64,000 bases of DNA from Candidatus Anderseniibacteriota bacterium (GTDB taxonomy: Bacteria; Patescibacteriota; Andersenbacteria; UBA10190), in contig JBBDZC010000003.1 in NCBI GenBank assembly GCA_040900375.1, positions 586-64,585 of the forward strand, given 5' to 3'. The stretch's first letter is position 1. Each line of letters opens with the position of its first letter. Shown piece after piece: positions 3,908 through 30,601 of this stretch. The position numbers and the translations under genes are program-made. The notes beneath the pieces are model-generated. The model was not told where the DNA came from. It saw only the letters and a list, made by a program, of their open reading frames with translations, and searched no databases.

Positions 3908-5341
3908 TCAGGGTTGCCGCTCTGGCTGAAGATTGAGGATAATACGTTTTTCAATACGAGGGATGGATTGAACCCAAAAGGGCCATAAGTTCAAATCTAC
4001 CGATCGTACTCCAGGTAGGCCCTGGAGATAAGTAGTTGCCTCTTGGCGTTTACGACCTGCTAATTTTTCTCGAAGAGTTTCCAGTGATAGCTGCGGAATT
4101 GTGGTATGAGTGACTCGGACCAAGACTGTTGCTTCGGCTTGTTCCCAATTAATGTCCTCAACAGTTTTATTATAGGTAATAGGACCAGGAAAAAGCATAT
4201 ATTCTTGATCGAGGCGTTCTGTCAAAGCAATTGTCAGCTTGGCTTCAAGCGCTTGCTGCTCATAACCAATGACGCGAACAATCGAACGCGCCGTGTAGGG
4301 AATAGTTGCTTGTCGGCTATCAAGGGCCGCCTCGCTCGTAAAGGATATGATCTCGTTAGTCCAACTTTCCTCTAAAATAATCCAGTTTTGGGGTAGTTCT
4401 TGGCGAATCTCTTGCTCCACTTTGGCCCTCGCTTTGCTACCCGCATCTTGTCGCGCTGTCTCTAGGTCTTGTTCTTTAATAACCGCTACGTTCTCACCAG
4501 AACCCCCCGTTAAAGCTGTCGTCGCCTCCGCGTAGACCAAGGATTGAGCAGGTGCATCTAGGGCGGCGAAATTAAGACGTTGGGGTTCAATATTACTCTC
4601 GGCCCCCGCCTCGGCCGCTTCTACCTCTACACTGACAGTACCTGCTGGAGGAATTGTGGCGCTTTTTATCATGAAAAACAGCTTGTCATCCTGGGTTACG
4701 AGACGGCTGCGTTCTTTAATTTTTTGTTCATCAACAGTGCGATTAATGAGTTGCACTCTCCCCTGCGTCTTTGTGCCTATTACTTCAGTACTAGTCACGG
4801 TAGCCGAATCGGTGATCTCAACTTCGCGAAAAAAAGCCGAGCCGGGAATATTGCCAGAAGCTTCTGCTCCCTCGGCTTTAATGGTTAAACGTTCATCCAC
4901 CAGCAAGGGAGCCGTGCGCAACACCATTTTAACATTTGCCCGAGGAAGAAAAATAAACCCAGCGAGTAGGCTGGCCAGGATCACTAAACCAAGCAATGCG
5001 AGCACTACTTTGCGCTCACGGTGACCTAAACGGACTGACCGAGCCGGATTCTTGGTCTTAACCGCCGACGAAGGGGCTGAAGCTAGGCGGTTACCGCTCG
5101 CAGTTTTCTGCGGTGCCGCTACCTGAATATTAGTAACCGGTACCTTGGCGCCCGGAGGCAATCGCTTTGACTCCAGGGTTTTTTTATTAAAGTTGCTGGC
5201 CTGATTTTGATAAGTCGAGCGGGCATGCTCCGGAGAGCGCCCCGCCGGCACGGGCAACTTTGGCAAAGAGGAGAGCGGCGGCTTGTGATCACCAGGAAAA
5301 TCACGAGGATGCATATTGGGAGTAGGTCGTATATCACGCAT
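3908..5341 (-). CDS. hypothetical membrane-anchored protein
   Basis: 477 aa with a Pro/Ser-rich basic N-terminal ~120 aa, one TM helix (VVLALLGLVILASLLAGFIFL) and a large extracytoplasmic domain. I do not recognise a family. Confidence 0.5.
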   Translation of the reverse strand: MRDIRPTPNMHPRDFPGDHKPPLSSLPKLPVPAGRSPEHARSTYQNQASNFNKKTLESKRLPPGAKVPVTNIQVAAPQKTASGNRLASAPSSAVKTKNPARSVRLGHRERKVVLALLGLVILASLLAGFIFLPRANVKMVLRTAPLLVDERLTIKAEGAEASGNIPGSAFFREVEITDSATVTSTEVIGTKTQGRVQLINRTVDEQKIKERSRLVTQDDKLFFMIKSATIPPAGTVSVEVEAAEAGAESNIEPQRLNFAALDAPAQSLVYAEATTALTGGSGENVAVIKEQDLETARQDAGSKARAKVEQEIRQELPQNWIILEESWTNEIISFTSEAALDSRQATIPYTARSIVRVIGYEQQALEAKLTIALTERLDQEYMLFPGPITYNKTVEDINWEQAEATVLVRVTHTTIPQLSLETLREKLAGRKRQEATTYLQGLPGVRSVDLNLWPFWVQSIPRIEKRIILNLQPERQP

Positions 5342-7949: not shown

Positions 7950-8195
7950 GAACTACAGTATAGCATGTCTCGTGATAGTTCGTTGCCTTCTATTCTGCAA
8001 ACTAATAAGAATGCAAAAATTAACCCATGAGAGTTTTTATCTGGAGCCCGTAAGCCCGAGGATGAAGGGCTTTGTCACTGTCCCGGCGGGGAGCCGGCAC
8101 GCCACAGACAAAAGTCCCCCGATACCACGGGCATAAGCCCGTAGTGACTTTTATTGCCCTCCGCAAATATCCTGCCGCTCGCCGCGGGGGCGGCT

Positions 8196-9938
8196 TTATG
8201 GCAGGGGTGGTGGCGTGGGTCCCACAAAGGCAGCTGGTTGCGACGGCTTGGGCGAGTGTTTGTGAGAAGGAACGTCTGTTGCTGACGAGGATGCAGCCGC
8301 ACCTACCGTATGCTGCCTTTGTCGTTTTTCTTCCTTAACCTCCGCGAAGCATTCTCGACAATAGACTGCCTTCTCGGGATCAGGCATAAATGGCACTTCC
8401 GCTTGATTGCCACAGCGGTCACACGTAATGGTGTACATTGTTTTTTTCGATTTCCCCGCCTCATGAGACACTGGTTGCTCCGCGGCAGTTAAAACCGCTG
8501 CGAGATCAGTAATCTCACGCTGCTGAGCTTGAACTACCACATCTTGCAGTTCCTTTTCAATAAACTGCTGGGGAGGGCTGGGTGGCCTGGACTGTGTTCG
8601 CGCAGGCCGGGCGGCACTTGGTTGGCCTTCGTCAACAGCCGCCTTGCCCTGTAAAACAACACCGCTCCAGCGCGCGATCTTTTCTTCCACAATTTCTCGC
8701 TGTCGGCCGTAACGCTCCCGCGAAACATTAATCACTGTGTCCTTTTTGCCAAAATCCTCAATCGCGGGCGGGATTGTCTGCATACTGAATGGCTTGCTAG
8801 TTACCCCATGAATCATGAGCTTCACGTAGGCATTATATTTGTTGAGGTTAACCAGGTCAGTCTCTGTAAATGTGGGAAAGAACTCCTTTTCTAAGTACTC
8901 TGCATCAAAAGCACCAACCCGGAAAGAAATTAATGTGCCGACATTGCCAAAGACCGCATCGCGCACAGGTTCTTCCATTTGGGTAATATATTGATGGGCA
9001 ATAGTGAGGTTTAAACGATACTTGCGCGCTTCCGAGAGAATGGTGGCAAAAGATTCAGTTGCAAAATTTTGAAACTCATCAACATAGAGGTAAAAATCAC
9101 GCCGCTCTGCTTCAGGCATACTGGCTCGGTCCATGGCTGCTAACTGAATACGGTTAATTAACATTGCTCCCAACAAAGCAGAATTATCTTCGCCAATTTT
9201 TCCCTTAGAAACATTGATCAGTAAGATTTTGCCGTTATCCATAATATCTTTCATATCAATTGTGCTCTTAGGTTGAGCAACAATATTGCGAATAATGGCC
9301 GAGCTTAGAAATTGCCCTACTTTATTTTGAATAGGCGAAATCGCTTCACTACGAAAACGCTCATTATAGTTAGCAAATTCGTTAGTCCAAAAGGCTTTGA
9401 CCACCGGGTCAGAGATCTTTTCTACTACTTTCTTACGGTACTTTTGGTCAGACAGCATACGTAAAATCCCCAAAATAGTACTCGAGGGGTAATCAAGTAA
9501 TGCTAAAATGGTATTGCGTAAAATATATTCGAGTCGCGGCCCCCAGGAATCGGCCCATATTTTCTTGAGACTAGAAACTAACCCAGAGGCAACGAGGTAT
9601 TTATACGAGGGGTCAACAGCCTCGAGCACATTAAAGGCGATGGGGTAGTTAACGTCTGAAGGATCAAAGTAAATAACGTCGTTAATGCGCTCGGGAGGAA
9701 TAGCATTCAGTAACTTCTCCGCGGTATCACCATGAGGATCGACTAAACAAACCCCTTTATTATTGACAATATCTTGCGCAATCATGTTCTCTAACAGTGT
9801 GGATTTACCTACGCCGGTTTTTCCAATGACATAAATATGCCGCCGGCGATCGTCGGGATAAATACCAAATTTCCGGTGCTGACCGCGAAAATTAGTTTGA
9901 CCCACAATCGTGATATCTGGTATCTCGGTAAGTTTCAT
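8196..9938 (-). CDS. VirD4/TraG/TrwB-like coupling-type P-loop ATPase, soluble, with Pro-rich tail and C-terminal CxxC...CxxC zinc ribbon
   Basis: Walker A is IGKTGVGKST and Walker B is FYLYVDEFQNF. The conserved ARKYRLNLTIAHQ box resembles the T4SS coupling-protein / FtsK-HerA superfamily. The C-terminus carries CDRCGNQAEV...YCRECF. Confidence 0.6.
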   Translation of the reverse strand: MKLTEIPDITIVGQTNFRGQHRKFGIYPDDRRRHIYVIGKTGVGKSTLLENMIAQDIVNNKGVCLVDPHGDTAEKLLNAIPPERINDVIYFDPSDVNYPIAFNVLEAVDPSYKYLVASGLVSSLKKIWADSWGPRLEYILRNTILALLDYPSSTILGILRMLSDQKYRKKVVEKISDPVVKAFWTNEFANYNERFRSEAISPIQNKVGQFLSSAIIRNIVAQPKSTIDMKDIMDNGKILLINVSKGKIGEDNSALLGAMLINRIQLAAMDRASMPEAERRDFYLYVDEFQNFATESFATILSEARKYRLNLTIAHQYITQMEEPVRDAVFGNVGTLISFRVGAFDAEYLEKEFFPTFTETDLVNLNKYNAYVKLMIHGVTSKPFSMQTIPPAIEDFGKKDTVINVSRERYGRQREIVEEKIARWSGVVLQGKAAVDEGQPSAARPARTQSRPPSPPQQFIEKELQDVVVQAQQREITDLAAVLTAAEQPVSHEAGKSKKTMYTITCDRCGNQAEVPFMPDPEKAVYCRECFAEVKEEKRQRQHTVGAAASSSATDVPSHKHSPKPSQPAAFVGPTPPPLP

Positions 9939-9950
9939 AGAATCGGTAAC

Positions 9951-11243
9951 TTAAATATACGGCAGATTTTCCGGAGCGCTACCGAGACCGGAAGTGGCTC
10001 GCTGAATACTAGGAGAACGACCATATTTGCTGGGAAAATGAAAAAGAGTAGCGAGTTCTTCAGCCGTCATCATTGACCCACTCTTATCTCCCCAAAAATC
10101 CCGAAATTGATAATTAAGCAATATTACACGTTTACGATATCGCCGCCGCGTCTGCTTGAGAATATAATTAGGACCATTTGTTTTTGTAGCATCATCAGGC
10201 TTAAGAGAGTTAAGATGAGACGTGTTAAATTGTTTAAACACGCCAATCGCTTTACTGGCGTTGGGTTTATGAAGCTTGCCGACGGGGGCAATGTGAACGA
10301 CTCGCATTTTAGTGCGAAAACCCGAACGGCCAACTTTTTGCAAAATAGCTTTAGTAATGTCTTGTTCGGGTGGGGTCATAAAGAGCCGTTGTGGTTTAAT
10401 ATCATTCTTTGCACTCGCTTCGAGGGGACCCTTAGTCGCTGCTTGGAATAGTTCGCCAGGCAACGCCGTTAAAAACTCAAATAAGCGCGCGGTGACTCCT
10501 GGCGGCTTCTCTTTAACCCGCCCGGCAATCCTATTAATCTCTTCCTGGCCCCGTTCTGACCACGTATTAATGTCGGAGGCACTAACAGGACGGACGAGTA
10601 ACTGAAACCAAAAATGTTCACCCTCTTCAATGGTTGTAAACGCTTCAATCAGTGCTTGCAAGGGGTCAATGTAGCGCTCATCTTCGGCTAAGGCATCTTC
10701 ATAATCATGGTAGGTTCTAATCGGAAAAATATCCTCTCGGACGAGCACCATCTCTGTGCCGTAGAGATCAAAAGTTTTTTCTAGATCTCTATGAGGAAAA
10801 GCTTGGGCATAATCTTCAACCTCGCGGATTTCCGCGGTCGGATATTGACCATAAATTACTCCTTCAAAAAACTTTCTATGCACCGTCGGCACAACCATAA
10901 TAAAGCGGACTCGATTACGCGTGCATTCTAACTCACAAGTGTACCAGGCAAGCATATACCCCTCAAAGTATCGCTCCAGTAAATCAGGATTTTTATGAAT
11001 GCCGCCCCACACTTCAAAAGCTTGCTCCATCGCCTTGGGTGTTTGCGGCGTCTCTTCCGGCACAGTAATTTGGAGGTACGTGAAGTGAATCGCGGAAACA
11101 TAATCAATCTGCTTGAGACGCAGATATACTTCCCAGGCGATCCAGAGGGCAAAAAAGACAATAAATAACCAGCCCCAAGAAAGTAAGACAGTTGCAAATT
11201 CGCTTAAGAGACGAAGAATATTGGAAAAATCCCAGAATGACAC
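9951..11243 (-). CDS. hypothetical membrane protein, partner of the VirD4-like ATPase
   Basis: 430 aa with N-terminal TM helices (LLSWGWLFIVFFALWIAW). It ends 12 nt before the ATPase start. No family recognised. Confidence 0.45.
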   Translation of the reverse strand: MSFWDFSNILRLLSEFATVLLSWGWLFIVFFALWIAWEVYLRLKQIDYVSAIHFTYLQITVPEETPQTPKAMEQAFEVWGGIHKNPDLLERYFEGYMLAWYTCELECTRNRVRFIMVVPTVHRKFFEGVIYGQYPTAEIREVEDYAQAFPHRDLEKTFDLYGTEMVLVREDIFPIRTYHDYEDALAEDERYIDPLQALIEAFTTIEEGEHFWFQLLVRPVSASDINTWSERGQEEINRIAGRVKEKPPGVTARLFEFLTALPGELFQAATKGPLEASAKNDIKPQRLFMTPPEQDITKAILQKVGRSGFRTKMRVVHIAPVGKLHKPNASKAIGVFKQFNTSHLNSLKPDDATKTNGPNYILKQTRRRYRKRVILLNYQFRDFWGDKSGSMMTAEELATLFHFPSKYGRSPSIQRATSGLGSAPENLPYI

Positions 11244-11525: not shown

Positions 11526-11540
11526 CAGCTAAGGAAAATT

Positions 11541-11649
11541 GACTCTTCGACTCGCGCAAGCTCCACCCTGAAGGGTGGAGATAAGCGCGGCTCAGAGTCA
11601 ACCCTGAGCAAGCCACGGCCTTTAGACCGTGGAGTCGAATGGGTTGACA
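11541..11649 (+). repeat. copy 1 of a ~109-bp multi-hairpin repeat family
   Basis: GACTCTTCGACTCGCGCAAGCTCCACCCTGAAGGGTGGAG...CCACGGCCTTTAGACCGTGGAGTCGAATGGGTTGACA. Near-identical copies occur at 19324-19434 (+), 23749-23857 (-) and 30453-30563 (-). Confidence 0.85.
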
Positions 11650-11661
11650 ATGTCGAGGTCT

Positions 11662-12717
11662 TTACGACCGGAGGGTGTAGCGGTTCTCGGGCGTCTTAAT
11701 AAAACGTTTTTCGTTTTGGAGGCCGAGGAGGATAGTGTTCTTCTTAACCTGACGCTGGGCTAACACTTGCTCAATTAGCTCTTCGCGGGTCAAAGGAGTT
11801 TGGGCGCGCGCGAGTAATGACTCTAAAACATCGGCAACTGTGCCTGGGATATAACCCCACTCTGCCAGCCCGTATAAACCGCGACCGACTAGCACAAATC
11901 GATCATCTTTGATCAGTTCATTATGCACAGTTTGAGCATTGGCTTGCTTATGATCAAAAGCGGCTTCATTGATCAAATTAGTGATTCGCGTAAAGTGCTC
12001 TGGTTTGCCGTGGCGACGTAATACAGCATAGGCCTTATCACCGACTCCGCGCGGATTAGTTTCCGGCCAACCCGCCAGCCCCCATTCAAGAAAAGGAGTC
12101 TGGTTAACGTGTTTGCTTGCCTTGAGGCACGCGTCAATATAGCGAGAGGGTAATGTCTCCAGAGTTTCTTTAAGGCTGTGTAAGATCCCCTCAATCAACT
12201 CTTGCTCGGGCAGGGGATGTTGAGTTTGCTTTAAAATCTGGCGAGCGCTCTCCACCACCACCACAGCCTTATCTGTTACGACTGCCGGATAGCGCCAGTG
12301 CGGAGCAAAATACTGGTCACGAGAAACATACGTGTATGGCGGCAAAATCTCTAAGTAAAAGGTGACGACCGCCGGATGAATGTTATCCTGGCCAAGCACT
12401 TCACGCACTACTGCCACTACATGATTATCCGCCAGGATACCGCCATGATTGACGAAAATCTCTTCAAAAACCTCGGCTACTGGCTGCAAGGGGTCATGCA
12501 AAGCCGCTAAAACCTTTTTAGCTTGTGATTCGATTTGGCGCACTCGCTCGCGGGTAATACCATACTCTTTACCAATACTCTCGAGCGTCTCTACATGACC
12601 ATTGTTTAACCCAAAACGGCGACTGATAATGTCGCGAGAACGATCATCAAGCGCTTCCAAAAGTGTCTGGGTAAGTTGGTTAAGTTTTAATGCTTTAGCA
12701 GGGGCAGTCGCGGACAT
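11662..12717 (-). CDS. sigma-70 region 4-like HTH fused to two HARE-HTH-like domains; putative transcription factor
   Basis: The N-terminus (TLESIGKEYGITRERVRQIESQAKKVL) is a sigma-70 region 4.2 signature. The C-terminus (RFVLVGRGLYGLAEWGY) and an internal segment (PFLEWGLAGW) resemble the HARE-HTH (RNA polymerase delta N-terminal) motif F.RVGRGLYGL.EW. Confidence 0.55.
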   Translation of the reverse strand: MSATAPAKALKLNQLTQTLLEALDDRSRDIISRRFGLNNGHVETLESIGKEYGITRERVRQIESQAKKVLAALHDPLQPVAEVFEEIFVNHGGILADNHVVAVVREVLGQDNIHPAVVTFYLEILPPYTYVSRDQYFAPHWRYPAVVTDKAVVVVESARQILKQTQHPLPEQELIEGILHSLKETLETLPSRYIDACLKASKHVNQTPFLEWGLAGWPETNPRGVGDKAYAVLRRHGKPEHFTRITNLINEAAFDHKQANAQTVHNELIKDDRFVLVGRGLYGLAEWGYIPGTVADVLESLLARAQTPLTREELIEQVLAQRQVKKNTILLGLQNEKRFIKTPENRYTLRS

Positions 12718-15220: not shown

Positions 15221-16405
15221 TTACCCACGCTCTTCTTGTAATACTGGCACGAGCCCCATGGCAAGTTTGAAAGTAAGCAACGCAATATCGCGGCCGGCCT
15301 GGGGGTGATCGAGCGGTGTTAAGGCGCGTGCCAGTTCATGGCGTAGATATTCGTGCTCAAGTAAATCAGTCAGGCTTCGTAAGAAAAGATTTCGACCTAA
15401 ATTTGCAGGATCCAGCACCCGCGCCGCGCCCGCCCGCTCATAAATTTGCGCATTGAGACGCTGATGATCATAAGCTGCTCCTGGCAAAGGAATAAGCAGA
15501 CTAGGTTTTCTCAACCGGGTAAGCTCGGCAAGCGTTGTCGCCCCTGCTCGCGAAACAACAATATCTGCCGCCGTCATCGCTTCAATAACCGTATCCGTTA
15601 AATAAGGATAGGCTTTGTAAAATTCCTTGCGGGATGACGATTCTAAGAGTTCATTAGCAACAGTCGTAATTTTTGTAAAATGATTATCGCCCGTGATATG
15701 AATAATGCCCGCCTGAAGAATTAACTCGGGTAAGACCTGAAGCAAGACCTCATTGAGCGCTAGTGCCCCTTGGCTTCCGCCAACTACAAGAATTACCATG
15801 TCACTTACTTTAAAGCCAAAGGCTTGTTTGGCTTCAGCTACGGAAACTCTCCCAAACTCATGGCGCACCGGTGTGCCAGTAACGAAGGTTTTATGCTGGT
15901 AACGGCTCATCTCTTCGCGCGTTGCTGCAAAGCCCACCGTGATCGCGGCTGCAAACCTCGCTGCCAAGCGGTTTGCTAAGCCAGATACGGCATCCGATTC
16001 GTGCAGGAGAAAAGGAATGCGATAGAAAGCTGCAGCTATGAGGACAGGAATACTGCCGTAACCACCCTTACTAACAATGACGTCTGGCATGATCTTCCAC
16101 ATCAGGTAGAGCGCCTTGACAATACCTACTGGTAGACGTCCGAGCATATCAAAAAAAGTTAAATGAGAGGCATAACGACGCAACTTTCCTGAAGGAACAT
16201 GATAGGCCGCCACATCATAATGTTTAAAAAAGGTCCGAGTTTTATCATCGACAATACCGATAAAGAACAGATCGAGTTTTGTCGGCTCTATTCTCTCCGG
16301 TAAAGAATCCTTTTGTTCCAGGTAGACCGTCCGCAACGATTCAATAATTGGTTCGAAGGGAATCAGGTGTCCCCCTGTTCCACCACCAGTAAGCACAATT
16401 CTCAT
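15221..16405 (-). CDS. murG: undecaprenyldiphospho-muramoylpentapeptide beta-N-acetylglucosaminyltransferase
   Basis: MRIVLTGGGTGGHLIPFEPII at the N-terminus and the GT28 C-terminal domain. Confidence 0.9.
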   Translation of the reverse strand: MRIVLTGGGTGGHLIPFEPIIESLRTVYLEQKDSLPERIEPTKLDLFFIGIVDDKTRTFFKHYDVAAYHVPSGKLRRYASHLTFFDMLGRLPVGIVKALYLMWKIMPDVIVSKGGYGSIPVLIAAAFYRIPFLLHESDAVSGLANRLAARFAAAITVGFAATREEMSRYQHKTFVTGTPVRHEFGRVSVAEAKQAFGFKVSDMVILVVGGSQGALALNEVLLQVLPELILQAGIIHITGDNHFTKITTVANELLESSSRKEFYKAYPYLTDTVIEAMTAADIVVSRAGATTLAELTRLRKPSLLIPLPGAAYDHQRLNAQIYERAGAARVLDPANLGRNLFLRSLTDLLEHEYLRHELARALTPLDHPQAGRDIALLTFKLAMGLVPVLQEERG

Positions 16406-16574
16406 ACGTTAATCATACGTTTATTTGTGCGGGAAATGAAACGGCCTTCGCATCTTACGGTAGAGTATGCAAAGGATGTAATGAAGCCTCCCCCGCGGCC
16501 AGGCCGCGGGGTATCAGGGCGGCTGCGTTGCCTAAGGAGTCGGCTCCGCCGATTCCTTTCAGAACCCCTTCCAT

Positions 16575-16616
16575 CCCCGCCGCTAGCGGCGGGGTATTCA
16601 CGGGGTGCAATAAACT
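16575..16616. repeat. 42-nt GC-rich palindromic element (CCCCGCCGCTAGCGGCGGGG + TATTCACGGGGTGCAATAAACT) in the murG-ftsW spacer
   Basis: A perfect 9-bp-stem palindrome. The same 42 nt (3 mismatches, reverse orientation) recurs at 30108-30149 inside a GT2 coding sequence. Confidence 0.7.
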
Positions 16617-16648
16617 TTTTTTACTTACCACTCTTGCCGGTCCCCGTC

Positions 16649-17773
16649 CTAGGTTTCTCGGGCGTACTTGGAAATATTCAACAGAATACCTGAAGCAAAT
16701 AACATGCTGACCAAGGAAGTGCCGCCATAACTTATAAAGGGCAAAGGAATGCCTGTGAGTGGCGTCACCGCTAAAATTGAACCAATATTAATAAATACCT
16801 GAATACTGATCCAAGAAGTAATGCCGCATGCCAGCAGTCGGCCAAAGAGATCAGGTGCCCGATGCGCAATTATATAACCCCGATAAGCAATCACTAAAAA
16901 GACAGCAATAATGAACAAAGAACGAATGAGACCGAGCTCCTCGGCAATGATCGCAAAAATTGAATCGCCTGCCGGCTCCGGCAGATAATGGTATTTTTGC
17001 CGGCTCCGGCCAAAGCCCAATCCCCACATTCCCCCAGTGCCTACAGCCAGCAGGGCCTGGTTAATCTGGTAACCAATGCCTTGCGGATCTAATTCGGGAT
17101 GAAGGTACACCAAAATGCGGGACAAGCGATATGAAGCAGTGTTAAAAAGCAAGATGAACAACGCCACAGCGGCCCCAGCAATCAATGTTAGATGCGTAAT
17201 TTTAAAACCAGCAATAAAGACCATGGCCCCGGCAATCGCCACAATACTAAAGAGAGTGCCAATGTCTGGTTGCATCACAATCAATCCAGTAATAATGCCC
17301 GTGATAATCAGAAAAGGCACAACACTCTTTCTGAAGTCATGAATATCCTCTTTTTTACGCTCAAGTAAAGCGGCCAAGTAAACAATAAAGGCTAGCTTAG
17401 TAATTTCTGTCGGTTGGATAGTTATAGGACCAAGGCTAATCCAGCGCGCGGCGCCTCCATATGCAAATTGCAGTCCCGGGATAAAGACCATCACCAAGAG
17501 GATGAGCGACAAAAGGAGTCCTGGCAAAGCCAGGAGGCGCCACTTCCTATAGGGAACATAAAAACCAAAAAGAAAGGCCACTAAACCCGAGGAACCGCCA
17601 AAAAAGAGTTGATGCTTTAAAAAAGCATAAATATCCCCACGAAAACGCTCAGCGATAACAGAGGAGGCAGACGTGATCATCATCATGCCGAAAAGCGTAA
17701 GGCCAATAATACAGAGCAATAAAAGAGTATCAGCAGACTGGCGTGAGGAGCTAGCCATAGTAAAATCCATCAT
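16649..17773 (-). CDS. ftsW: SEDS family peptidoglycan glycosyltransferase FtsW/RodA
   Basis: 374 aa, 10-TM SEDS-type protein in the conserved murD-ftsW-murG position. Confidence 0.85.
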   Translation of the reverse strand: MMDFTMASSSRQSADTLLLLCIIGLTLFGMMMITSASSVIAERFRGDIYAFLKHQLFFGGSSGLVAFLFGFYVPYRKWRLLALPGLLLSLILLVMVFIPGLQFAYGGAARWISLGPITIQPTEITKLAFIVYLAALLERKKEDIHDFRKSVVPFLIITGIITGLIVMQPDIGTLFSIVAIAGAMVFIAGFKITHLTLIAGAAVALFILLFNTASYRLSRILVYLHPELDPQGIGYQINQALLAVGTGGMWGLGFGRSRQKYHYLPEPAGDSIFAIIAEELGLIRSLFIIAVFLVIAYRGYIIAHRAPDLFGRLLACGITSWISIQVFINIGSILAVTPLTGIPLPFISYGGTSLVSMLFASGILLNISKYARET

Positions 17774-19221: not shown

Positions 19222-19323
19222 AGAAATTCATCCTTATAAGTCCCTGGTGATAACAAGACCTCCTATGTCTTATACATACCTTACAACAAAGAAGTGCCGG
19301 GACGGAAACTGTTTATCTAGTTT

Positions 19324-19434
19324 GACTCTTCGACTCGCGCAAGCTCCACCCTTCAGGGTGGAGATACGCGCGGCTTTAGAGTCAACCCTTAAGCAAGCCA
19401 CGGCCTTTAGACCGTGGAGTCGAATGGGTTGACA
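19324..19434 (+). repeat. copy 2 of the ~109-bp multi-hairpin repeat, inside the murD-mraY spacer
   Basis: About 93% identical to copy 1. The differences fall at hairpin loops (TGAA to TTCA, CTCAG to CTTTAG, TGAG to TTAAG). Confidence 0.85.
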
Positions 19435-21660: not shown

Positions 21661-22494
21661 TCAAAATGCCTGCCGTGAGGTACCTGATAGTTGGGCACTA
21701 TGCGGCAACGGCGCACCGCGGTATTTCCAGAAATACTTAAATGCTGAGCGAATATGTTCGCGCGTGGCCCAGTTAGTGATAATACCCATAAGTGTGCCCT
21801 GACTCGTGCGCTGATGAAAATGGGAAAAACGAGCTTGCGGTACATAAGTTACGCGCCATCCGCCTTGCCAGAAGCGGCGACACCAATCCACATCCTCAAA
21901 GTAAAGAAAGAAACGTTCATCCATGCCACCTATTACTTTAACCGCGGCTGCCCGCAGCGCCAGACAAGATCCCATGAGCCAGTCTACGTCTTGCACTTGT
22001 CGGTGATCAAAGTCTTTCATCAGAAAATGATTAATTTCTTTCTTGCCTAAACGAGTTTGCCCTAGCCACGTGCGCCGGTAAAGAATGGTGAGGAGTTTAT
22101 AAAAATGGTAACAAGAGTATTGCACTTTGCCACTCGGCGAGAGTAACTGTCCCCCTGCCACCCCCACATCCGGATGCGCCTGAAGAAACTGTGTGAGAAT
22201 CATAACAGAACCCGGTAGAGCAATAACATCGGGATTCAGCACTAAGTAGAACTGACCTTGGGCCTGGGCTAGCGCCTTATTAACTCCCGCCGCCAATCCC
22301 ATATTTTTAATATTATCAATCACCATAATTTCTGGGAAATCGGCACGGAGGAACGAGACGCTAGTGTCAGATGATCCATTATCAACCACGATAATTTCCG
22401 TGCGAGGAGGTAGTTTTTGTGTGAGCAATGACTCAATACAGGCTTGCGTGAGCGCTCCGGTATTATAGTTAACAATGATAATAGATAGCTTCAT
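21661..22494 (-). CDS. glycosyltransferase family 2
   Basis: MKLSIIIVNYNTGALTQACIESLL...VVDNGSSDTS...LNPD are classic GT2-A motifs. Confidence 0.8.
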   Translation of the reverse strand: MKLSIIIVNYNTGALTQACIESLLTQKLPPRTEIIVVDNGSSDTSVSFLRADFPEIMVIDNIKNMGLAAGVNKALAQAQGQFYLVLNPDVIALPGSVMILTQFLQAHPDVGVAGGQLLSPSGKVQYSCYHFYKLLTILYRRTWLGQTRLGKKEINHFLMKDFDHRQVQDVDWLMGSCLALRAAAVKVIGGMDERFFLYFEDVDWCRRFWQGGWRVTYVPQARFSHFHQRTSQGTLMGIITNWATREHIRSAFKYFWKYRGAPLPHSAQLSGTSRQAF

Positions 22495-22577: not shown

Positions 22578-23588
22578 TTAGATTTGTTTGAGCACTCCCT
22601 CTCGGCGCTTTCTGTTCATCCGCGGTAAACCAGAAATTACTTCCGGCCATATCTTAAATAGAGAAGGATACAAGAGACTAAGCCCTAAAAAAACTAGACC
22701 ACGCCCGATGATCGCGGGGGAATATTGAAAGATCGTCATGGGGGTGGCATTTTTAGCAATCATCCAGATCCAGTTACGCAGACTGTACCGCGTGCGCGGA
22801 CTCTGAAGACGACGATAAATCAGACGAGGACGTGATCCCCAGTTAAATATTCCGCGCCGACCAAGGGTCCGAGCGTGATGACCAATCAAGACAGGAACAT
22901 AGTGCACTTTCCATCCTGCACGTTGCAGGCGCCAGCCCAAGTCAACATCTTCTTTATACGCGAAGAAGTCTCTGTCATAAAATTCATTACGACCATGTGC
23001 TACTTGTTTAAGCGCCTGCAAGCGATACAGACTGCAAGCGCCAGTTGTAGCAGTTATGGTTGCTCTTGTCGCAAACTGTCCTTTATCTTCCTCGAAGGCC
23101 CCGCGCTCTTTACCATTCAAAGCATAGGTTAAAACAATGCCGGCGGAATCAATCATGGACTTATTATTGATTATCTCCTGCCGCAGTAACTTACCCTGCA
23201 CGGCTCCTAAAGTGGGATCACCTTCCAAAGCTTGAATGAGCACTTGTACCCCTGGCCAGTGTAGGGTGACATCAGGGTCACACGTTAATACATACGGTGT
23301 GGTGCAGCGAATAAATCCTTCATTATGCCCCTGGGCAAATCCAAGATTACGCGGTAAGGCCACAACCTGGGCCCGGGGGAGAAGCTTGCGCACCGTAGCA
23401 ATTGAGTCATCAGTTGAGTGATTATCAATATATCTAATGATGACGTCCGCCAGCGGAACAACGTGTAAAGCGGGCAACGTCTGGGCCAAGACAGAAGAGC
23501 TGTTCCAGCCCACAATTTGAATAGTGAGTTGCGCTGTCATAGTGAAAGTATTGCTTACGTTATACCAGACTACCGTGTCAAGCTCCAT
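22578..23588 (-). CDS. glycosyltransferase family 2
   Basis: LTIQIVGWNSS...IDNHSTDDS...NLGFAQGHNEG...CDPD are GT2 motifs. The true start is possibly MTAQLTIQ at about 23540. Confidence 0.75.
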   Translation of the reverse strand: MELDTVVWYNVSNTFTMTAQLTIQIVGWNSSSVLAQTLPALHVVPLADVIIRYIDNHSTDDSIATVRKLLPRAQVVALPRNLGFAQGHNEGFIRCTTPYVLTCDPDVTLHWPGVQVLIQALEGDPTLGAVQGKLLRQEIINNKSMIDSAGIVLTYALNGKERGAFEEDKGQFATRATITATTGACSLYRLQALKQVAHGRNEFYDRDFFAYKEDVDLGWRLQRAGWKVHYVPVLIGHHARTLGRRGIFNWGSRPRLIYRRLQSPRTRYSLRNWIWMIAKNATPMTIFQYSPAIIGRGLVFLGLSLLYPSLFKIWPEVISGLPRMNRKRREGVLKQI

Positions 23589-23748: not shown

Positions 23749-23857
23749 GTCAACCCATTCGACTCCACGGTCTAAAGACCGTGGCTTGTTCAGGGTTGAC
23801 TCTAAAGCCGCGCTTATCTCCACCCTGAAGGGTGGAGCTTGCGCGAGTCGAAGAGTC
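23749..23857 (-). repeat. copy 3 (inverted orientation) of the ~109-bp multi-hairpin repeat
   Basis: The reverse complement matches copies 1 and 2 over the full length. Lies in the divergent GT2 / murF intergenic region. Confidence 0.85.
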
Positions 23858-23921
23858 AATGAAAGCCAGCAATGGCTGCGCGGCGCTTTTCGTGGATAAG
23901 GAAAAGATGTAGCCTTAGAGT

Positions 23922-27912: not shown

Positions 27913-29381
27913 GCAGCCACCTTGTTATTCCCACTAGTAGCTGACACTAATCCGGCCATAATCCAAAAAAGGGCGTTAGTGGGATAAATATCCCACGTAT
28001 CAATAAAAATTGCCTGGAGCATAAAAGAGATTAACCAACCAAGCGCGCTCAAGGCAATAATACGCGGCACGCCCGTCCGCAAAAAGATGGTAGTTACCCC
28101 GGTTCGTAGTAGCCGCCAATAAATCCAGGCGTACAACAAGAGGCCGATGAGTCCCAATTCAATGAGTGTTTTAAGATACTGATTATCGACGAGGGTAGTA
28201 TTTTTCGCTAGCTGCACGTTGCGCGCTGCACCCGTAGCAATATCATATGAGGTTAGGGTTACTTCGCGGAAGTTCTGCGCGAGCACATCACCTAGACCTC
28301 GGCCAATAATTGCTTCGTGATTAGACAGCGGTGCCAACAGTCGGGCGAGGAATTCCAACCGTTCCTGATTACTACGATACCCTGAATCAAAACTCGAGGA
28401 AATAAAAACTCCCACGCGGGTAAATTGAGCCACAGCCACCGTTACCATCACCAATAGTAAGCAGCAAATTGCCAGCTTTCGCCAAGGAAAAGCCGCCACA
28501 GAATACTTCTTAAAAGACGCTGTCGCCACCAGCCCAATAATAGTGATAAGCAAGCTAGCAAATCCCAGCCACACGGCCCGAGAATACGTCAGATAAATTA
28601 AGAGTGTAGCCGCTAGTAACAAAAAACCTGCACCAGCCCGCACTCTACGCGAAGTTTTTACCAGAACAGCCGCCAGACAAATACCGGCAATAAGAATAAG
28701 ATAGTGGCCGAAAACACTAGGATGACCAAAAGTGCTCGACACCCGAGGAATCCATAATTTAACAGCTGGTTCAAAGCGCAACACCGCACTATCAATCGCG
28801 AACCACCATTGATAAGCACTAGCTACGACAGTGATCGCAAAGGAAAAAAATAACCACATGAGCAGTTCGTAGTAAAATTTCTTTGTCCGCGGCAAATAGA
28901 GAACAATAAAATAGAGCAAGATATATAGTAATATTTCTCTGGTTCGCAGGATACCTAGCAGGCGAGAATCAGCGCGCAGGAGAGCGACGCTTACCCATAG
29001 ACTAAGTCCGATGACTGGTCCGATTAATACCATGCGGCGGTAGGTCAGCTTTTTTTGAAGCAGAGGCCATAAGAACAGATGAACAAAAAGCGTGACAATA
29101 ATAACATCCTTGATCAGGGTGGCAATACTAATGGTCTGCGTCACCTTAAGGAGTGGCAGCAGTGGGCTGATAATCACGAGCATAAAGAAACCAAGCACAG
29201 GCTGTTGCCACACCCACCAGGCGACAATTACAAAGAGGAGGCTTAAAACTCCCGCTTGAAAGCTAACAGTCAGGCTAATGACCGCAACACTCATTGCGGC
29301 AATCAGCGCCCAGGCGTAGCCGGGAGGAAAACTCACAGAAGAGAGTCGCTCAAGATTATACATGGGACTTAATTTTCTCAT
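27909..29381 (-). CDS. O-antigen ligase/polymerase (Wzy/WaaL-like) family membrane protein
   Basis: 490 aa with about 12 TM helices and a large periplasmic loop, sitting between GT genes. Confidence 0.55.
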   Translation of the reverse strand: MRKLSPMYNLERLSSVSFPPGYAWALIAAMSVAVISLTVSFQAGVLSLLFVIVAWWVWQQPVLGFFMLVIISPLLPLLKVTQTISIATLIKDVIIVTLFVHLFLWPLLQKKLTYRRMVLIGPVIGLSLWVSVALLRADSRLLGILRTREILLYILLYFIVLYLPRTKKFYYELLMWLFFSFAITVVASAYQWWFAIDSAVLRFEPAVKLWIPRVSSTFGHPSVFGHYLILIAGICLAAVLVKTSRRVRAGAGFLLLAATLLIYLTYSRAVWLGFASLLITIIGLVATASFKKYSVAAFPWRKLAICCLLLVMVTVAVAQFTRVGVFISSSFDSGYRSNQERLEFLARLLAPLSNHEAIIGRGLGDVLAQNFREVTLTSYDIATGAARNVQLAKNTTLVDNQYLKTLIELGLIGLLLYAWIYWRLLRTGVTTIFLRTGVPRIIALSALGWLISFMLQAIFIDTWDIYPTNALFWIMAGLVSATSGNNKVAA

Positions 29382-30342
29382 TATTATTTCTCCACCCCAA
29401 ATGAAAAAGTATTGCCGGAATTGTAAGGACTAGGGCCAGAGGCAGCAAGAGGATAAGCAGAACGTATGCCCCCGTCCCCAAATGTTTTCGGGTGTAATGA
29501 AGACAACTCTTAAAGAAGGGCCATGAACGTTGCCAGCCAATAAGTTGATTAAAACTGATTCCTCCATAGTGCAATACGACTGCCGCTGGCACATAGAGAA
29601 TTTTCCAACCAGCCGCGCTCGCCCGCCGACAATAATCAACCTCTTCTAACCACACCCAAAAACGCTCATCAAGATACCCAATAGTAGTAAGCAACTCTTG
29701 GTGAATTAAGAAAGCCGCACCCATCACCTGTTCCACTATCTGTTCTTGCTCGTAATTAAAATCAGTCCAGAGGTATTCCCGCCAGCGGCGGGTGCGGCCC
29801 GCTACTCGACTTAATTTAAGAAACCACCCTATAAAGATAGGCAGAGTGGGTAATCGTCGAACTGATAATTGTTGTGTCCGATCAGCGTTGAGTAATTTAG
29901 GCCCCACAATGCCAACGCCGGGATGATGATCAAGTGCCATCACCATCTGCTCTAACGCCCCCGACTGCACCTTGGTGTCCGGATTAAGCAAGAGAATATG
30001 AGTCCGGCTCGCTCGCGTTCGGTGTATATAATGAATGCCCAAGTTATTAGCACGTGCAAAGCCTACGTTCTGCGCTTGCTTAAGTAAGTGGACGGGTAGT
30101 TTATTGCCCCCCGTAAATGCCCCGCCGCTAGCGGCGGGGACGGCTTCATCATTCGCTAGTACGACCGATTCGAGTCGAATTATCGAGTCATCCGTCGAAG
30201 CATTATCAATAACGACAATCGCTTCGATAAGGTTTTTTTCTGGCAATCGCAGCAGCGACTGCACACATTGGACTAGCAACTCTCCAGTATTCCAATTAAC
30301 AATTATGACGCTTACTTTTGTCATTAGTATTAAAATAGTCAA
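29356..30342 (-). CDS. glycosyltransferase family 2 carrying an in-frame 14-aa insertion encoded by the 42-nt palindromic element
   Basis: VSVIIVNWNTGELLVQCVQSLL...VIDNASTDDS...NVGFARANNLG...LNPD are GT2 motifs. The DxS-to-NxGFA spacing is 42 aa here against 22 aa in the two sibling GT2s. The extra segment PAASGGAFTGGNKL is encoded by 30108-30149. Confidence 0.8.
   Translation of the reverse strand: MTILILMTKVSVIIVNWNTGELLVQCVQSLLRLPEKNLIEAIVVIDNASTDDSIIRLESVVLANDEAVPAASGGAFTGGNKLPVHLLKQAQNVGFARANNLGIHYIHRTRASRTHILLLNPDTKVQSGALEQMVMALDHHPGVGIVGPKLLNADRTQQLSVRRLPTLPIFIGWFLKLSRVAGRTRRWREYLWTDFNYEQEQIVEQVMGAAFLIHQELLTTIGYLDERFWVWLEEVDYCRRASAAGWKILYVPAAVVLHYGGISFNQLIGWQRSWPFFKSCLHYTRKHLGTGAYVLLILLLPLALVLTIPAILFHLGWRNNNEKIKSHV
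30108..30149. repeat. second copy of the 42-nt GC palindromic element, inside the GT2 CDS
   Basis: The reverse complement differs from 16575-16616 at only 3 positions. Includes the perfect 20-nt palindrome CCCCGCCGCTAGCGGCGGGG. Confidence 0.7.
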
Positions 30343-30452: not shown

Positions 30453-30563
30453 TGTCAACCCATTCGACTCCACGGTCTAAAGGCCGTGGCTTGCTTAAGG
30501 GTTGACTCTAAAGCCGCGCGTATCTCCACCCTGAAGGGTGGAACTTGCGCGAGTCGAAGAGTC
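30453..30563 (-). repeat. copy 4 (inverted orientation) of the ~109-bp multi-hairpin repeat
   Basis: The reverse complement is about 97% identical to copy 2. Lies between a GT2 start and a truncated NIF3 fragment. Confidence 0.85.
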
Positions 30564-30601
30564 AAGTGCATTACTATACGAACATGCTACCACTGACCTA
30601 A

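Follow-up and report, generated by a model that had tools for sequence, protein, structure and literature searches.

The hairpin repeat and its three loci

The window, which is the whole 64-kb stretch of Andersenbacteria DNA analysed here, carries a GT2-family glycosyltransferase gene that belongs to a conserved GT4-GT2-Wzy arrangement. Its product is 100% identical to NCBI MEX1997085.1, for which NCBI places the start at M7 to give 322 aa. Within this gene lies a perfect 20-nt palindrome, CCCCGCCGCTAGCGGCGGGG (30120-30139), which recurs at 16575-16594 in the 243-nt spacer between MurG (15221-16405) and FtsW (16649-17773) and had no occurrence in 100 dinucleotide shuffles. An earlier reading of the letters alone (the sequence-only reading) had reported the palindrome at two sites and assigned one to the murG-ftsW spacer, both correctly. 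The palindrome is part of a longer repeat, 16571-16616(+) versus 30098-30143(-), with 91-93% identity (E=2e-12, blastn-short within the window). The reported 42-nt match with three mismatches (T/C, C/T, T/G) is also real and joins 16575-16616 to 30098-30139 on the minus strand, but the interval given for it in the GT2 gene, 30108-30149, was shifted by 10 nt. Position 30149 coincides by chance with the true outer end of the element as defined here.

A scan with nhmmer and a covariance model identified four hairpin modules at three loci in the window and no others (Table 1). Logan contigs extended the window to the right by 10 kb and to the left by about 0.45 kb, and the same scan found no hairpin copies in the extra 10 kb (contig L082). 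The GT2 copy, c3, has the layout TGCCCCCCGTAAATG-[palindrome 30120-30139]-ACGGCTTCAT; its length is divisible by three, and no stop interrupts four of the six frames. The intergenic palindrome proved to be the right half of a two-hairpin element, in which it forms the LE-like hairpin (this arm is termed c2) and an RE-like hairpin follows at 16491-16511 in direct orientation. The termini of this long element are ...GGCTTCAT at 16481 and TGCACCCC... at 16609. The third copy, c1, retains only a palindrome remnant (8170-8189) whose self-complementarity is lost, and it sits on the stop codon (8196-8198) of a TrwB/VirD4-like ATPase ORF, 8196-9938(-), so that the TAA stop is regenerated by the element end. 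The decayed copy, the second spacer hairpin and the shared 5' flank ATGAAGCC had escaped the sequence-only reading.

Table 1 Positions of the elements, their target motifs and the host gene in the window
Feature	Position	Strand	Description
GT2-family glycosyltransferase gene carrying c3	29356..30342	-	328-aa ORF; Pfam PF00535/PF13641
Short element c3	30105..30149	+ (putative top strand)	45 nt, single hairpin, inside the GT2 coding sequence
TTTAT, putative target and left cleavage motif of c3	30100..30104	+	directly 5' of c3
Excised allele at the GT2 locus, in silico			...AATGATAAACTA...
Long two-hairpin element	16481..16609	- (top strand is -)	129 nt, ftsW-murG spacer
TTTAT target motif of the long element	16610..16614	-	ATAAA on the + strand
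Short element c1, decayed	8155..8199	+	45 nt, 36/45 identical to c3
TTTAT target motif of c1	8150..8154	+	

All three elements share both termini, ATGAAGCC... on the 5' flank and ...GCAATAAA at the other end, which demonstrates a repeat family with defined ends. TTTAT adjoins the left side of every window copy (3/3) and ends 15 nt 5' of the hairpin, while TTCAT or TTTAT ends 10 nt 3' of it. The ends of the window copies (TGCC.../...TTCAT) are not inverted repeats of each other, and no direct duplication is shared between the flanks at the three sites; CCGT, considered as a target-site duplication around c3, was discarded because the other copies do not show it. Between c2 and c3 the stem is identical while the flanks differ: c3 matches the long element's far (RE) end on its 5' side and the LE end on its 3' side. 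The bases adjoining the stems are AATG/AATA/GATA and ACGG/ATGG/GAGG. GC skew is negative throughout the window.

A second repeat family of about 107-114 nt is also present in the window, in four copies with the same architecture, a TTGAC target and CAAG guides.

The GT2 copy is an in-frame insertion in a loop

Across the insert, the GT2 coding sequence reads ...NDEAVPAASGGAFTGGNKLPVH..., and on this minus strand c3 adds 15 codons, E66-N80. The TTTAT of c3 appears on the coding strand as ATAAA, within the codons GAT AAA. Excision of the 45 nt in silico kept the frame, gave ...SVVLANDKLPVHLL... (...ANDKLPVH...) and restored the loop length of the orthologues. The in-frame insertion encoding PAASGGAFTGGNKL (residues 69-82) was described correctly before, but its size was not: the inserted unit is most likely 45 nt and 15 aa (30105-30149), not 42 nt and 14 aa. 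Measurement confirmed that the linker between the DNxS and NxGF motifs is 42 aa in this protein and 22 aa in the two paralogues of the window (22578-23588 and 21661-22494).

The segment is absent from all 37 aligned GT2 orthologues, syntenic ones included, from four syntenic GT4-GT2-Wzy loci and from both window paralogues, which demonstrates an insertion relative to the orthologues. A scan of GT2 loci elsewhere with nhmmer and the covariance model (1.26 Mb, 80 other genomes) found no member of the element; the set covered three Andersenbacteria and a syntenic contig that carries the label Saccharibacteria. The host protein has a GT-A fold with Pfam GT2 domains and is conserved across orthologues; its AlphaFold2 model is confident overall (pLDDT 91.4), and the insert within it is coil with a pLDDT of 52-65. 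Both the orthologue alignment and the structure model therefore support the earlier suggestion that a small palindromic repeat has been accommodated in a tolerant GT2 loop in the manner of Rickettsia palindromic elements (RPEs).

The opposite polarity would make the 14-15 aa an original part of the GT2 protein and the intergenic copies the remains of pseudogenised GT2 paralogues; it might draw on the presence of several GT2 paralogues in the window and on one frame of the intergenic copy that reads IPAASGGVFTGCNKL. It is already contradicted and of negligible probability, given that the segment occurs in 0/37 orthologues and 0/2 paralogues and has a GC content of 71% in a gene that is otherwise 46% GC. 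Furthermore, similarity between the copies stops exactly at the element ends, and the intergenic copies are thus not gene fragments.

We also considered whether the hairpins are selected host elements, such as an mRNA stabiliser, an RNase- or terminator-like structure or a site for a dimeric protein, with the GT2 copy acting as an internal regulatory hairpin. The predicted folds are stable (-27 to -44 kcal/mol, most z-scores -2.2 to -3.1), the copies lie between dcw operon genes and after a stop codon, and the c2 and c3 stems are perfectly conserved between differing flanks. Against this, orientation relative to transcription differs among copies, no Rfam family was detected at any repeat (gathering threshold and E<=1), the coding-strand fold of the GT2 copy is no better than that of shuffles (z=-0.34), and the element is absent from all orthologous loci examined. 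An intrinsic terminator can be rejected, as neither strand has a T-run after the stem. A selected host element is accordingly a poor candidate, although a host function may have arisen by exaptation after insertion.

Two other assignments were discarded. A recurrent TGA/TAA 7-8 nt before the hairpin is not the stop codon of a conserved upstream gene, since the ORFs found there are either short or without relation to one another; it belongs to the element as its end motif. A CRISPR repeat was ruled out by the single copy per contig.

Empty and filled sites and covariation of the ends

The long element aligns over ~135 nt, with compensatory stem changes, with an element that lies downstream of gatB on the Patescibacteria contig L151 and abuts TTCTAA there. 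In contig L209, whose gatB is 88% identical to that of L151 at the nucleotide level, the corresponding site is empty, lies 7 nt from the next gene and reads TTCTAA|ATAAA...; three further relatives are also empty at this site. By this sequence comparison, the filled and empty alleles place the insertion junction exactly 3' of TTTAT, which demonstrates the insertion point in a related element. TTTAT also adjoins the metagenome elements L160 and L164, and its role as the target is based on three window loci and a few metagenome cases.

Two pairs of positions, each consisting of a base flanking the hairpin and a distal motif, covary among contigs. The first pair is G-C in 21, A-T in 51 and discordant in 4 cases (p=2e-14), and the second is G-C in 42, A-T in 20 and discordant in 9 (p=9e-11), in counts that treat contigs as independent and ignore phylogenetic relatedness. 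Both patterns are as would be expected if guides pair with cleavage sites. The c1 and long elements obey both covariations; c3 breaks both (ATGAA...CATT), and it may therefore be unable to move or have arisen by recombination between LE and RE flanks.

These data bear on a scenario without any transposase, in which about 45 nt of an intergenic hairpin were copied into the GT2 gene by a single accident of repair or replication (template switching at a stalling hairpin, or gene conversion). GC-rich palindromes provoke template switching, only the c2 arm and c3 are nearly identical (93%), and no transposase is nearby. However, the mixed origin of its flanks means that c3 does not correspond to any uninterrupted part of the spacer. 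The same pair of ends recurs at an unrelated site in a third, older copy, TTTAT abuts all copies, and a homologous element is cleanly polymorphic, filled or empty, in a different lineage of the CPR. We regard such copying as improbable.

Related hairpins are associated with IS200 transposases

A metagenome scan for the hairpin yielded at least 120 contigs of 30-77% GC. In 15 of these, an ORF of ~150 aa lies no more than 33 nt from the hairpin and is assigned to Y1_Tnp by Pfam. With NCBIfam models, these transposases score 150 bits for the IS200/IS605 TnpA model NF033573 (cutoff 55) and 24-41 bits for the RAYT model NF047646, below its cutoff of 80. The TnpA-encoding insertion sequences have a hairpin of the window type at both LE and RE. 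Against the 15 hairpin contigs with a TnpA, a control set of 1.26 Mb of unrelated loci contained one. The association between hairpin and IS200 TnpA is thereby demonstrated in the TnpA-bearing contigs, which come from organisms other than the Andersenbacteria source genome. Non-autonomous metagenome elements with two hairpins have identical ends in different flanks; short single-hairpin forms were not recognisable among the at least 120 matches.

No TnpA/Y1 gene is present in the 74 kb made up of the window and the 10 kb beyond it. An exact pattern for the full element returned no matches in 185,579 species-representative genomes, JGI metagenomes and IMG/VR, and the source genome itself is therefore not in those collections. 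A protein search with the concatenated six-frame element peptides, which are too short to reach significance, returned nothing at E<=10.

The transposase scores also bear on the choice between an IS200-derived MITE and a classical REP that depends on a domesticated RAYT present in single copy. A REP would suit the form of the repeat (one short GC-rich hairpin, 20-45 nt), its location largely between genes or at their 3' ends, and the stop codon that it provides for a neighbouring ORF; RAYTs are Y1 transposases of the same superfamily, and intragenic REPs have been documented (PMC3733652). On the other hand, the GTAG or CGTC tag that adjoins the stem and defines the two REP superfamilies (PMC3733652) is missing at the stem feet, the hairpins of the long form are direct and not inverted as in REPINs, and the hairpin-adjacent transposases classify as IS200 TnpA and not as RAYT. 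A RAYT-maintained REP is therefore an improbable description of the repeat, on a par with copying by repair.

Discussion

The repeat is probably a non-autonomous, PATE/REP-like miniature derivative of an IS200/IS605-family insertion sequence. As proposed, each element would present a subterminal hairpin that a Y1 (HUH) transposase, TnpA, recognises on single-stranded DNA, with guide and cleavage motifs in the short hairpin flanks. The 129-nt form, with its left-end and right-end hairpins, would amount to LE plus RE without tnpA, and in the two 45-nt forms one hairpin would bear both the left and the right flank. The element would be excised and pasted as a single strand 3' of a short target, TTTAT, without duplication. 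One 45-nt copy would have entered the codons GAT|AAA in the GT2 loop between helix 2 and strand 3; as 45 nt are 15 codons and the reading frame stays open, the enzyme would have been extended by 15 residues within a disordered loop, and the insertion would have persisted.

No transposase lies within the 74 kb, and mobilisation by a TnpA acting in trans in this genome is thus an inference; the 45-nt form would itself have moved rather than arisen by deletion. IS608-type elements show strand bias, and the mixed orientation of the window copies relative to the replication direction deduced from the skew is therefore weak evidence against an IS200/IS605 origin (n=3).

It is doubtful that the 45-nt single-hairpin unit is a complete and currently mobile Y1 transposase substrate, in which one guide serves both the left TTTAT and the right TTTAT/TTCAT. 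We know of no experimental precedent for such a form as a transposable unit in the IS200/IS605 family. If it were one, it would be about the smallest transposable unit described and, given its length and open frames, would repeatedly supply CPR bacteria with in-frame loop insertions in their cell-envelope enzymes.

CPR/Patescibacteria genomes are small and usually described as repeat-poor. Nevertheless, this one 64-kb stretch contains two families of hairpin mini-elements with IS200/IS605 architecture, and one copy has been absorbed into a glycosyltransferase gene as 15 extra residues. The ends and the target could be defined at the nucleotide level for a hairpin class that is widespread and apparently unnamed. 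Such elements cross CPR lineages, being found in Andersenbacteria and in a Buchananbacteria-like genome. They offer a simple model of how single-strand transposons may lengthen protein loops without breaking genes, and they break short-read assemblies, with Logan contigs ending at or near them.

Comparison with known systems

In IS608, the left cleavage site CL lies 19 nt 5' of the LE hairpin, outside the insertion sequence, and CR lies 10 nt 3' of the RE hairpin, inside it; the guides are 5' of the hairpin foot, and the element inserts on the 3' side of its target, where no DNA is added or lost (PMC3201880). The geometry of the window copies matches this arrangement: the target motif is external to the element and precedes the left hairpin by 15-20 nt, and the end motif is internal, 10 nt 3' of the right hairpin. 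The hairpin is of the type that borders IS200 TnpA genes, terminal inverted repeats and target-site duplications are both absent, and the putative guide and cleavage positions covary across the family, with c3 as an exception. The window copies differ in that the available sequence around them contains no transposase, the target is TTTAT and not TTAC or TTGAT, and one copy is an in-frame part of a gene. Two hairpins are required in the IS608 substrates that have been described, whereas the 45-nt form has one for both ends. Miniatures of IS200/IS605 elements that lack TnpA are named palindrome-associated transposable elements (PATEs).

The likeness to REPs and REPINs lies in a short palindromic unit, mostly extragenic and near gene 3' ends, that can donate a stop codon and would be mobilised by a Y1 HUH enzyme; the differences are the untagged stem feet, the direct doublet and transposases that classify as IS200 instead of RAYT. 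Intragenic in-frame REPs are known in Opitutus, Rickettsia and others, across several phyla (PMC3733652). The novelty that had been claimed for this kind of genome holds to the extent that we found no report for CPR bacteria, but the phenomenon is less novel than supposed, as in-gene elements are known from other bacteria, and the present case adds a well-resolved example without establishing a new principle.

RPEs are palindromic repeats found in frame in functional genes, where they add a peptide to a tolerant region (PMC10969869, PMC3733652), as c3 does. They differ in being about 100-150 bp long and Rickettsia-specific, whereas the window units are 45 or 129 nt in a CPR host; there is no sequence similarity, and no IS200-type end geometry has been described for RPEs. 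RPE-4/6 are CGTC-tagged REPs.

Yeast mitochondrial GC clusters, for example the optional cluster in var1, are likewise GC-rich, palindromic and about 30-50 bp long in an AT-richer genome, and a protein-coding gene can tolerate them in frame. They differ in being organellar, with another proposed mechanism and no link to a Y1 transposase.

Correia elements (CREE), like other MITEs of the terminal-inverted-repeat type, are small non-autonomous repeats within or beside genes, and the sequence-only reading had likened the insertion to them. They have terminal inverted repeats of about 26 bp and duplicate a TA target. The window elements have neither feature, which sets that comparison aside, and the ends of IS200/IS605 elements and their miniatures (PATE, REP) are consequently the closest systems in mechanism.

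Hairpin elements in the window

The perfect 20-nt palindrome CCCCGCCGCTAGCGGCGGGG occurs at exactly two sites in the window, 16575-16594 and 30120-30139, both of which had been recognised by the sequence-only reading, and dinucleotide-preserving shuffles gave no match to it even with up to three mismatches. The repeat is longer than the palindrome (16571-16616(+) versus 30098-30143(-), 91-93% identical, E=2e-12). The 42-nt repeat that had been proposed does carry three mismatches, with its second interval at 30098-30139 and not at 30108-30149. As that reading had placed them, one copy falls between FtsW (16649-17773) and MurG (15221-16405), in a spacer of 243 nt, and the other lies in a GT2 glycosyltransferase gene (29356-30342(-)); this gene encodes a protein with 100% identity to NCBI MEX1997085.1, which belongs to a Candidatus Andersenbacteria MAG.

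Three methods (repeat scan, nhmmer profile and covariance model) concordantly picked out three loci that together hold four related hairpin modules, with no others in the 64 kb; no copy was found in the extra 10 kb past the right end of the window. The stem of h differs from those of the other modules by compensatory changes. The 5' flank AT(G/A)AAGCC is common to c1, c3 and h, and the 3' flank YATTYRCGGRGKGCAATAAA to c1, c2 and c3; because of this flank sharing, h and c2, which lie in direct orientation 84 nt apart, are the arms of a single element of 129 nt (16481-16609), the long form. Both of its outer ends are retained in c1 and c3, which are 45-nt single-hairpin versions. Against a GC skew that is negative throughout, the three loci are of mixed orientation, which at n=3 says little and does not help the reading.

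Repeat modules and other features of the window
Feature	Position	Strand	Description
c1	8150-8199	-	decayed, 36/45 identical to c3, palindrome broken
h	16478-16535	+	different, equally perfect 10-bp stem CCCCGCGGCC-A-GGCCGCGGGG
c2	16562-16618	+	hairpin module, ftsW-murG spacer
c3	30096-30152	-	hairpin module inside GT2 CDS
Second family, copy 1	11539-11648	+	
Second family, copy 2	19322-19433	+	
Second family, copy 3	23750-23860	-	
Second family, copy 4	30454-30565	-	
477-aa protein	3908-5341	-	weak Baseplate_J match (E=7e-5); neighbours IF-1/ribosomal protein genes and alanyl-tRNA synthetase
TrwB/VirD4/HerA-like ATPase	8196-9938	-	C-terminal treble-clef zinc finger
430-aa protein	9951-11243	-	adjacent to the ATPase, no Pfam match; the pair lies between ribosomal/LOG genes and the cell-wall cluster
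Sigma-70 region 4 + HARE-HTH protein	11662-12717		after the ATPase/430-aa pair
Palindrome TTGACCGGCCGGCCGGTCAA	56756-56775		perfect, 20 nt, within YfhO-like ORF 55460-57751(+); similar CGACCGGCCGGCCGGTCG at position 15029 of a Buchananbacteria locus (L037)

In tnpA sense (the top strand of the element), c3 reads GGGTAG TTTAT / TGCCCCCCGTAAATG-[hairpin]-ACGGCTTCAT / CATT and c1 reads GTGACT TTTAT / TGCCCTCCGCAAATA-[hairpin remnant]-GCGGCTTTAT / GGCA. The long form begins AAAAAG TTTAT / TGCACCCCGTGAATA-[hairpin]-ATGGAAGG and, after 62 nt, continues CCCTGATA-[hairpin]-GAGGCTTCAT / TACA. Throughout the window copies TTTAT ends 15 nt 5' of the stem and TT(C/T)AT exactly 10 nt 3' of it, and the ends show no terminal inverted repeats and no duplication of the target.

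The independent Logan assembly of SRR27977660 stops at window position 8060, ~90 nt from c1 (contig ends L083/L001), and breaks again at ~30500, within the ~110-nt repeat of the second family and 157 nt before the GT2 gene starts; these broken contigs suggest that the c1-side and ~110-nt repeat sequences recur elsewhere in the genome or sample. Further hairpins, for example ACGGGCATAAGCCCGT, lie at 8060-8150.

Insertion into the GT2 gene and at other sites

The segment is missing in all 37 aligned orthologues of the GT2 protein (44-54% identity, mostly ~300 aa), and the loops are shorter by 14-19 residues at four loci (L002-L005) that share the GT4-GT2-Wzy gene order. The DNxS-to-NxGF linker is 42 aa here and 22 aa in both paralogues, and the peptide PAASGGAFTGGNKL corresponds to residues 69-82, both as previously read. 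Similarity between the gene and intergenic copies stops at the element borders, and the inserted segment has a G+C content of 71% versus 46% for the gene. An origin of the intergenic copy as a fragment of the GT2 gene is contradicted, since the segment is missing in the aligned orthologues and the similarity is confined to the element.

The earlier proposal of an in-frame insertion thus stands in view of the orthologues, with its size revised from 14 residues to most likely 45 nt and 15 residues (EAVPAASGGAFTGGN; 30105-30149 by the defined ends). On the coding strand the junctions are AAT G/AT GAA GCC ... GGC A/AT AAA; in-silico removal gives AAT GAT AAA CTA and a protein reading ...SVVLANDKLPVHLLKQAQNVGFA, with a loop equal in length to that of L005 (...IVGSLGNKPPVRFVMMNKNLGFA), and the insertion junctions recreate both D65 and N80. 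By direct reading of the sequence, four of the six reading frames are open through the element. In an AlphaFold2 model based on the orthologue alignment (pLDDT 91.4, pTM 0.90; GT-A fold by Foldseek), residues 65-83 are modelled as coil (block pLDDT 65 and 52) between helix 53-64 and strand 84-88, which places the insert in a predicted loop; the sequence-only reading had suggested a surface loop.

At the second single-hairpin site, c1 sits where the TrwB-like ORF ends: the target ATAAA included the TAA stop codon of this ORF, which the element end ATAAAG restores, and the protein is therefore unchanged.

The surrounding 20-64 kb and the 10 kb beyond the window (L082) form an unusually dense envelope-polysaccharide region with more than 15 glycosyltransferase genes (GT2, GT4, GT9), two Wzx-type flippases, MurJ, Wzy, YfhO, FemAB and DegT, mixed with dcw genes and a two-component system. 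A sub-threshold Rfam match to the mir-509 precursor inside a GT2 paralogue CDS (23122-23201(-), 36.7 bits, gathering 64.5, E=1e-4) is in all probability a hairpin formed by chance.

Relation to IS200/IS605 ends

Exact-pattern scans for the whole element gave no match in 185,579 representative genomes, JGI metagenomes and IMG/VR, and no whole element was found in 1.26 Mb of GT2 loci from 80 other genomes. A looser metagenome scan for the hairpin alone plus YAT matched at least 120 contigs (30-77% G+C), nearly all at a single site. Among the listed contigs the flanks are clearly non-random, several downstream sequences recur, an (A/G)T(G/A)AA motif begins 8 nt before the stem and the loop is mostly GCAAGC. 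This motif was rejected as a gene stop, as ORFs ending there are short or unrelated. In 15 of the 120 listed contigs the opposite strand carries a ~150-aa ORF whose end is 3-33 nt away from the hairpin; Pfam assigns it to Y1_Tnp, and NCBIfam scores it at 140-154 bits as IS200/IS605 TnpA (cutoff 55) and at only 24-41 bits as RAYT (cutoff 80). The same hairpin stands at both ends of these TnpA-carrying insertion sequences: in tnpA sense the left end reads TT(T/C)A(C/T) + 15-20 nt + hairpin + ATGAATGC..., and the right end AT(G/A) + hairpin + 3-5 nt + TT(T/C)A(C/T). An IS200-type end of this kind, CCCCGCSGC-loop-GCSGCGGGG with RTRAA 8 nt upstream, is widespread, occurring on at least 120 contigs.

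TnpA-less elements with two hairpins occur on other contigs; their ends are identical and their flanks unrelated, as in L160 and L164, which start ATGAAGCT and finish GCGAATAAA; several distinct families of this kind (groups B-F) occur among the listed contigs. The 1.26-Mb control set holds a single TnpA, between two CTTG-loop hairpins. This copy (L049, 4459-5013; ORF 4536-4985, identical hairpins CCGAGGGGCTTGCCCCTCGG on both sides) is a textbook autonomous element with another stem but the same CTTG loop.

An empty and filled site pair was obtained for a counterpart of the long form that follows gatB in contig L151; the two can be aligned over ~135 nt. L151 comes from a Patescibacteria MAG, and its GatB shares 80% identity with Buchananbacteria proteins. 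The L151 element reads AATGAAG-hairpin-TATCAGGGCRRCTGCRTTG...GAGTCGGCTCCGCCGA...CAT-hairpin-TATTC, and both stems show compensatory differences from the long form. The empty relative L209 (gatB 88% identical in nucleotides) reads TTCTAA/ATAAAATATTTATG, only 7 nt separating the stop from the following gene, and the filled site reads TTCTAA/ATGAAGTTGA-hairpin...; comparison of these junctions, covering one side as the far junction lies past the contig end, shows in tnpA sense that the ...CTTCAT element end joins the base after TTTAT of the empty site. In L151 the element's own TGA takes the place of the gatB TAA, so that here, as at c1, the element supplies the stop codon. The site is likewise empty in three further relatives (GatB 80-82%).

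In the metagenome hits, two bases next to the hairpin covary with two positions of the distal motif, which lies on its other side (pair 1: G-C 21, A-T 51, discordant 4, Fisher p=2e-14, or 19/49/4 with duplicates removed; pair 2: G-C 42, A-T 20, discordant 9, p=9e-11), with contigs counted individually and relatedness ignored. The covarying pairs are not a simple stem extension; in IS608 the same rule for two positions holds for TTAC/AAAG and TCAA/GAAT. The rule is kept by c1 and both ends of the long form and violated at both positions by c3 (ATGAA...CATT), which fits an RE-type outer flank joined to an LE-type guide and suggests that c3 may no longer be excisable.

A second repeat family

Four copies of a second repeat (~107-114 nt, 93-99% identical) are all intergenic and in both orientations, one of them 110 nt upstream of the insertion-carrying GT2 gene. 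Identity runs from TTGAC to GGGTTGAC and encloses a pair of hairpins in direct orientation, both with CAAG in front of them. The left TTGAC stands 17 nt 5' of hairpin 1, and the last base of the right TTGAC is 16 nt 3' of hairpin 2. No Rfam match was found. Because TGAC/CAAG pairs in the same pattern as IS608 TTAC/AAAG, the family looks like an IS200/IS605-type miniature element with the target TTGAC.

Comparison with known systems

Neither Pfam on all large ORFs nor a TnpA profile on six-frame ORFs detected a Y1 transposase in the window or the extra 10 kb, and the element may be mobilised in trans by a TnpA in this genome. The 45-nt unit may itself transpose with its one hairpin, or may arise by hairpin-hairpin recombination in the long form followed by transposition or conversion. 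The findings are of value chiefly because they define the ends at nucleotide level, document the 45-nt single-hairpin form and place the element in two CPR lineages; our literature search found no report of such in-frame insertions for CPR bacteria.

In-frame palindromic insertions are well documented for RPEs and intragenic REPs (PMC3733652, PMC10969869), and to that extent the likeness to RPEs drawn by the sequence-only reading is apt. However, the window element is unrelated to RPEs in sequence and size, has neither the TIRs nor the TA duplication of Correia elements, and lacks the GTAG/CGTC tag that defines classical REPs (PMC3733652); the enzymes near the hairpin class are not RAYTs, the REP partner enzymes. 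The element instead behaves like IS200/IS605 ends and their miniature derivatives. IS608 is cleaved on the left 19 nt 5' of the left hairpin, outside the IS, and on the right 10 nt 3' of the right hairpin, within it; each site is read by a 4-nt guide that sits at the 5' hairpin foot (AAAG, TTAC and TCAA are attested), and insertion occurs 3' of the target with DNA neither gained nor lost (PMC3201880). The window copies are alike in the placement of both sites and in the absence of target duplication, and differ in a left distance of 15 rather than 19 nt.
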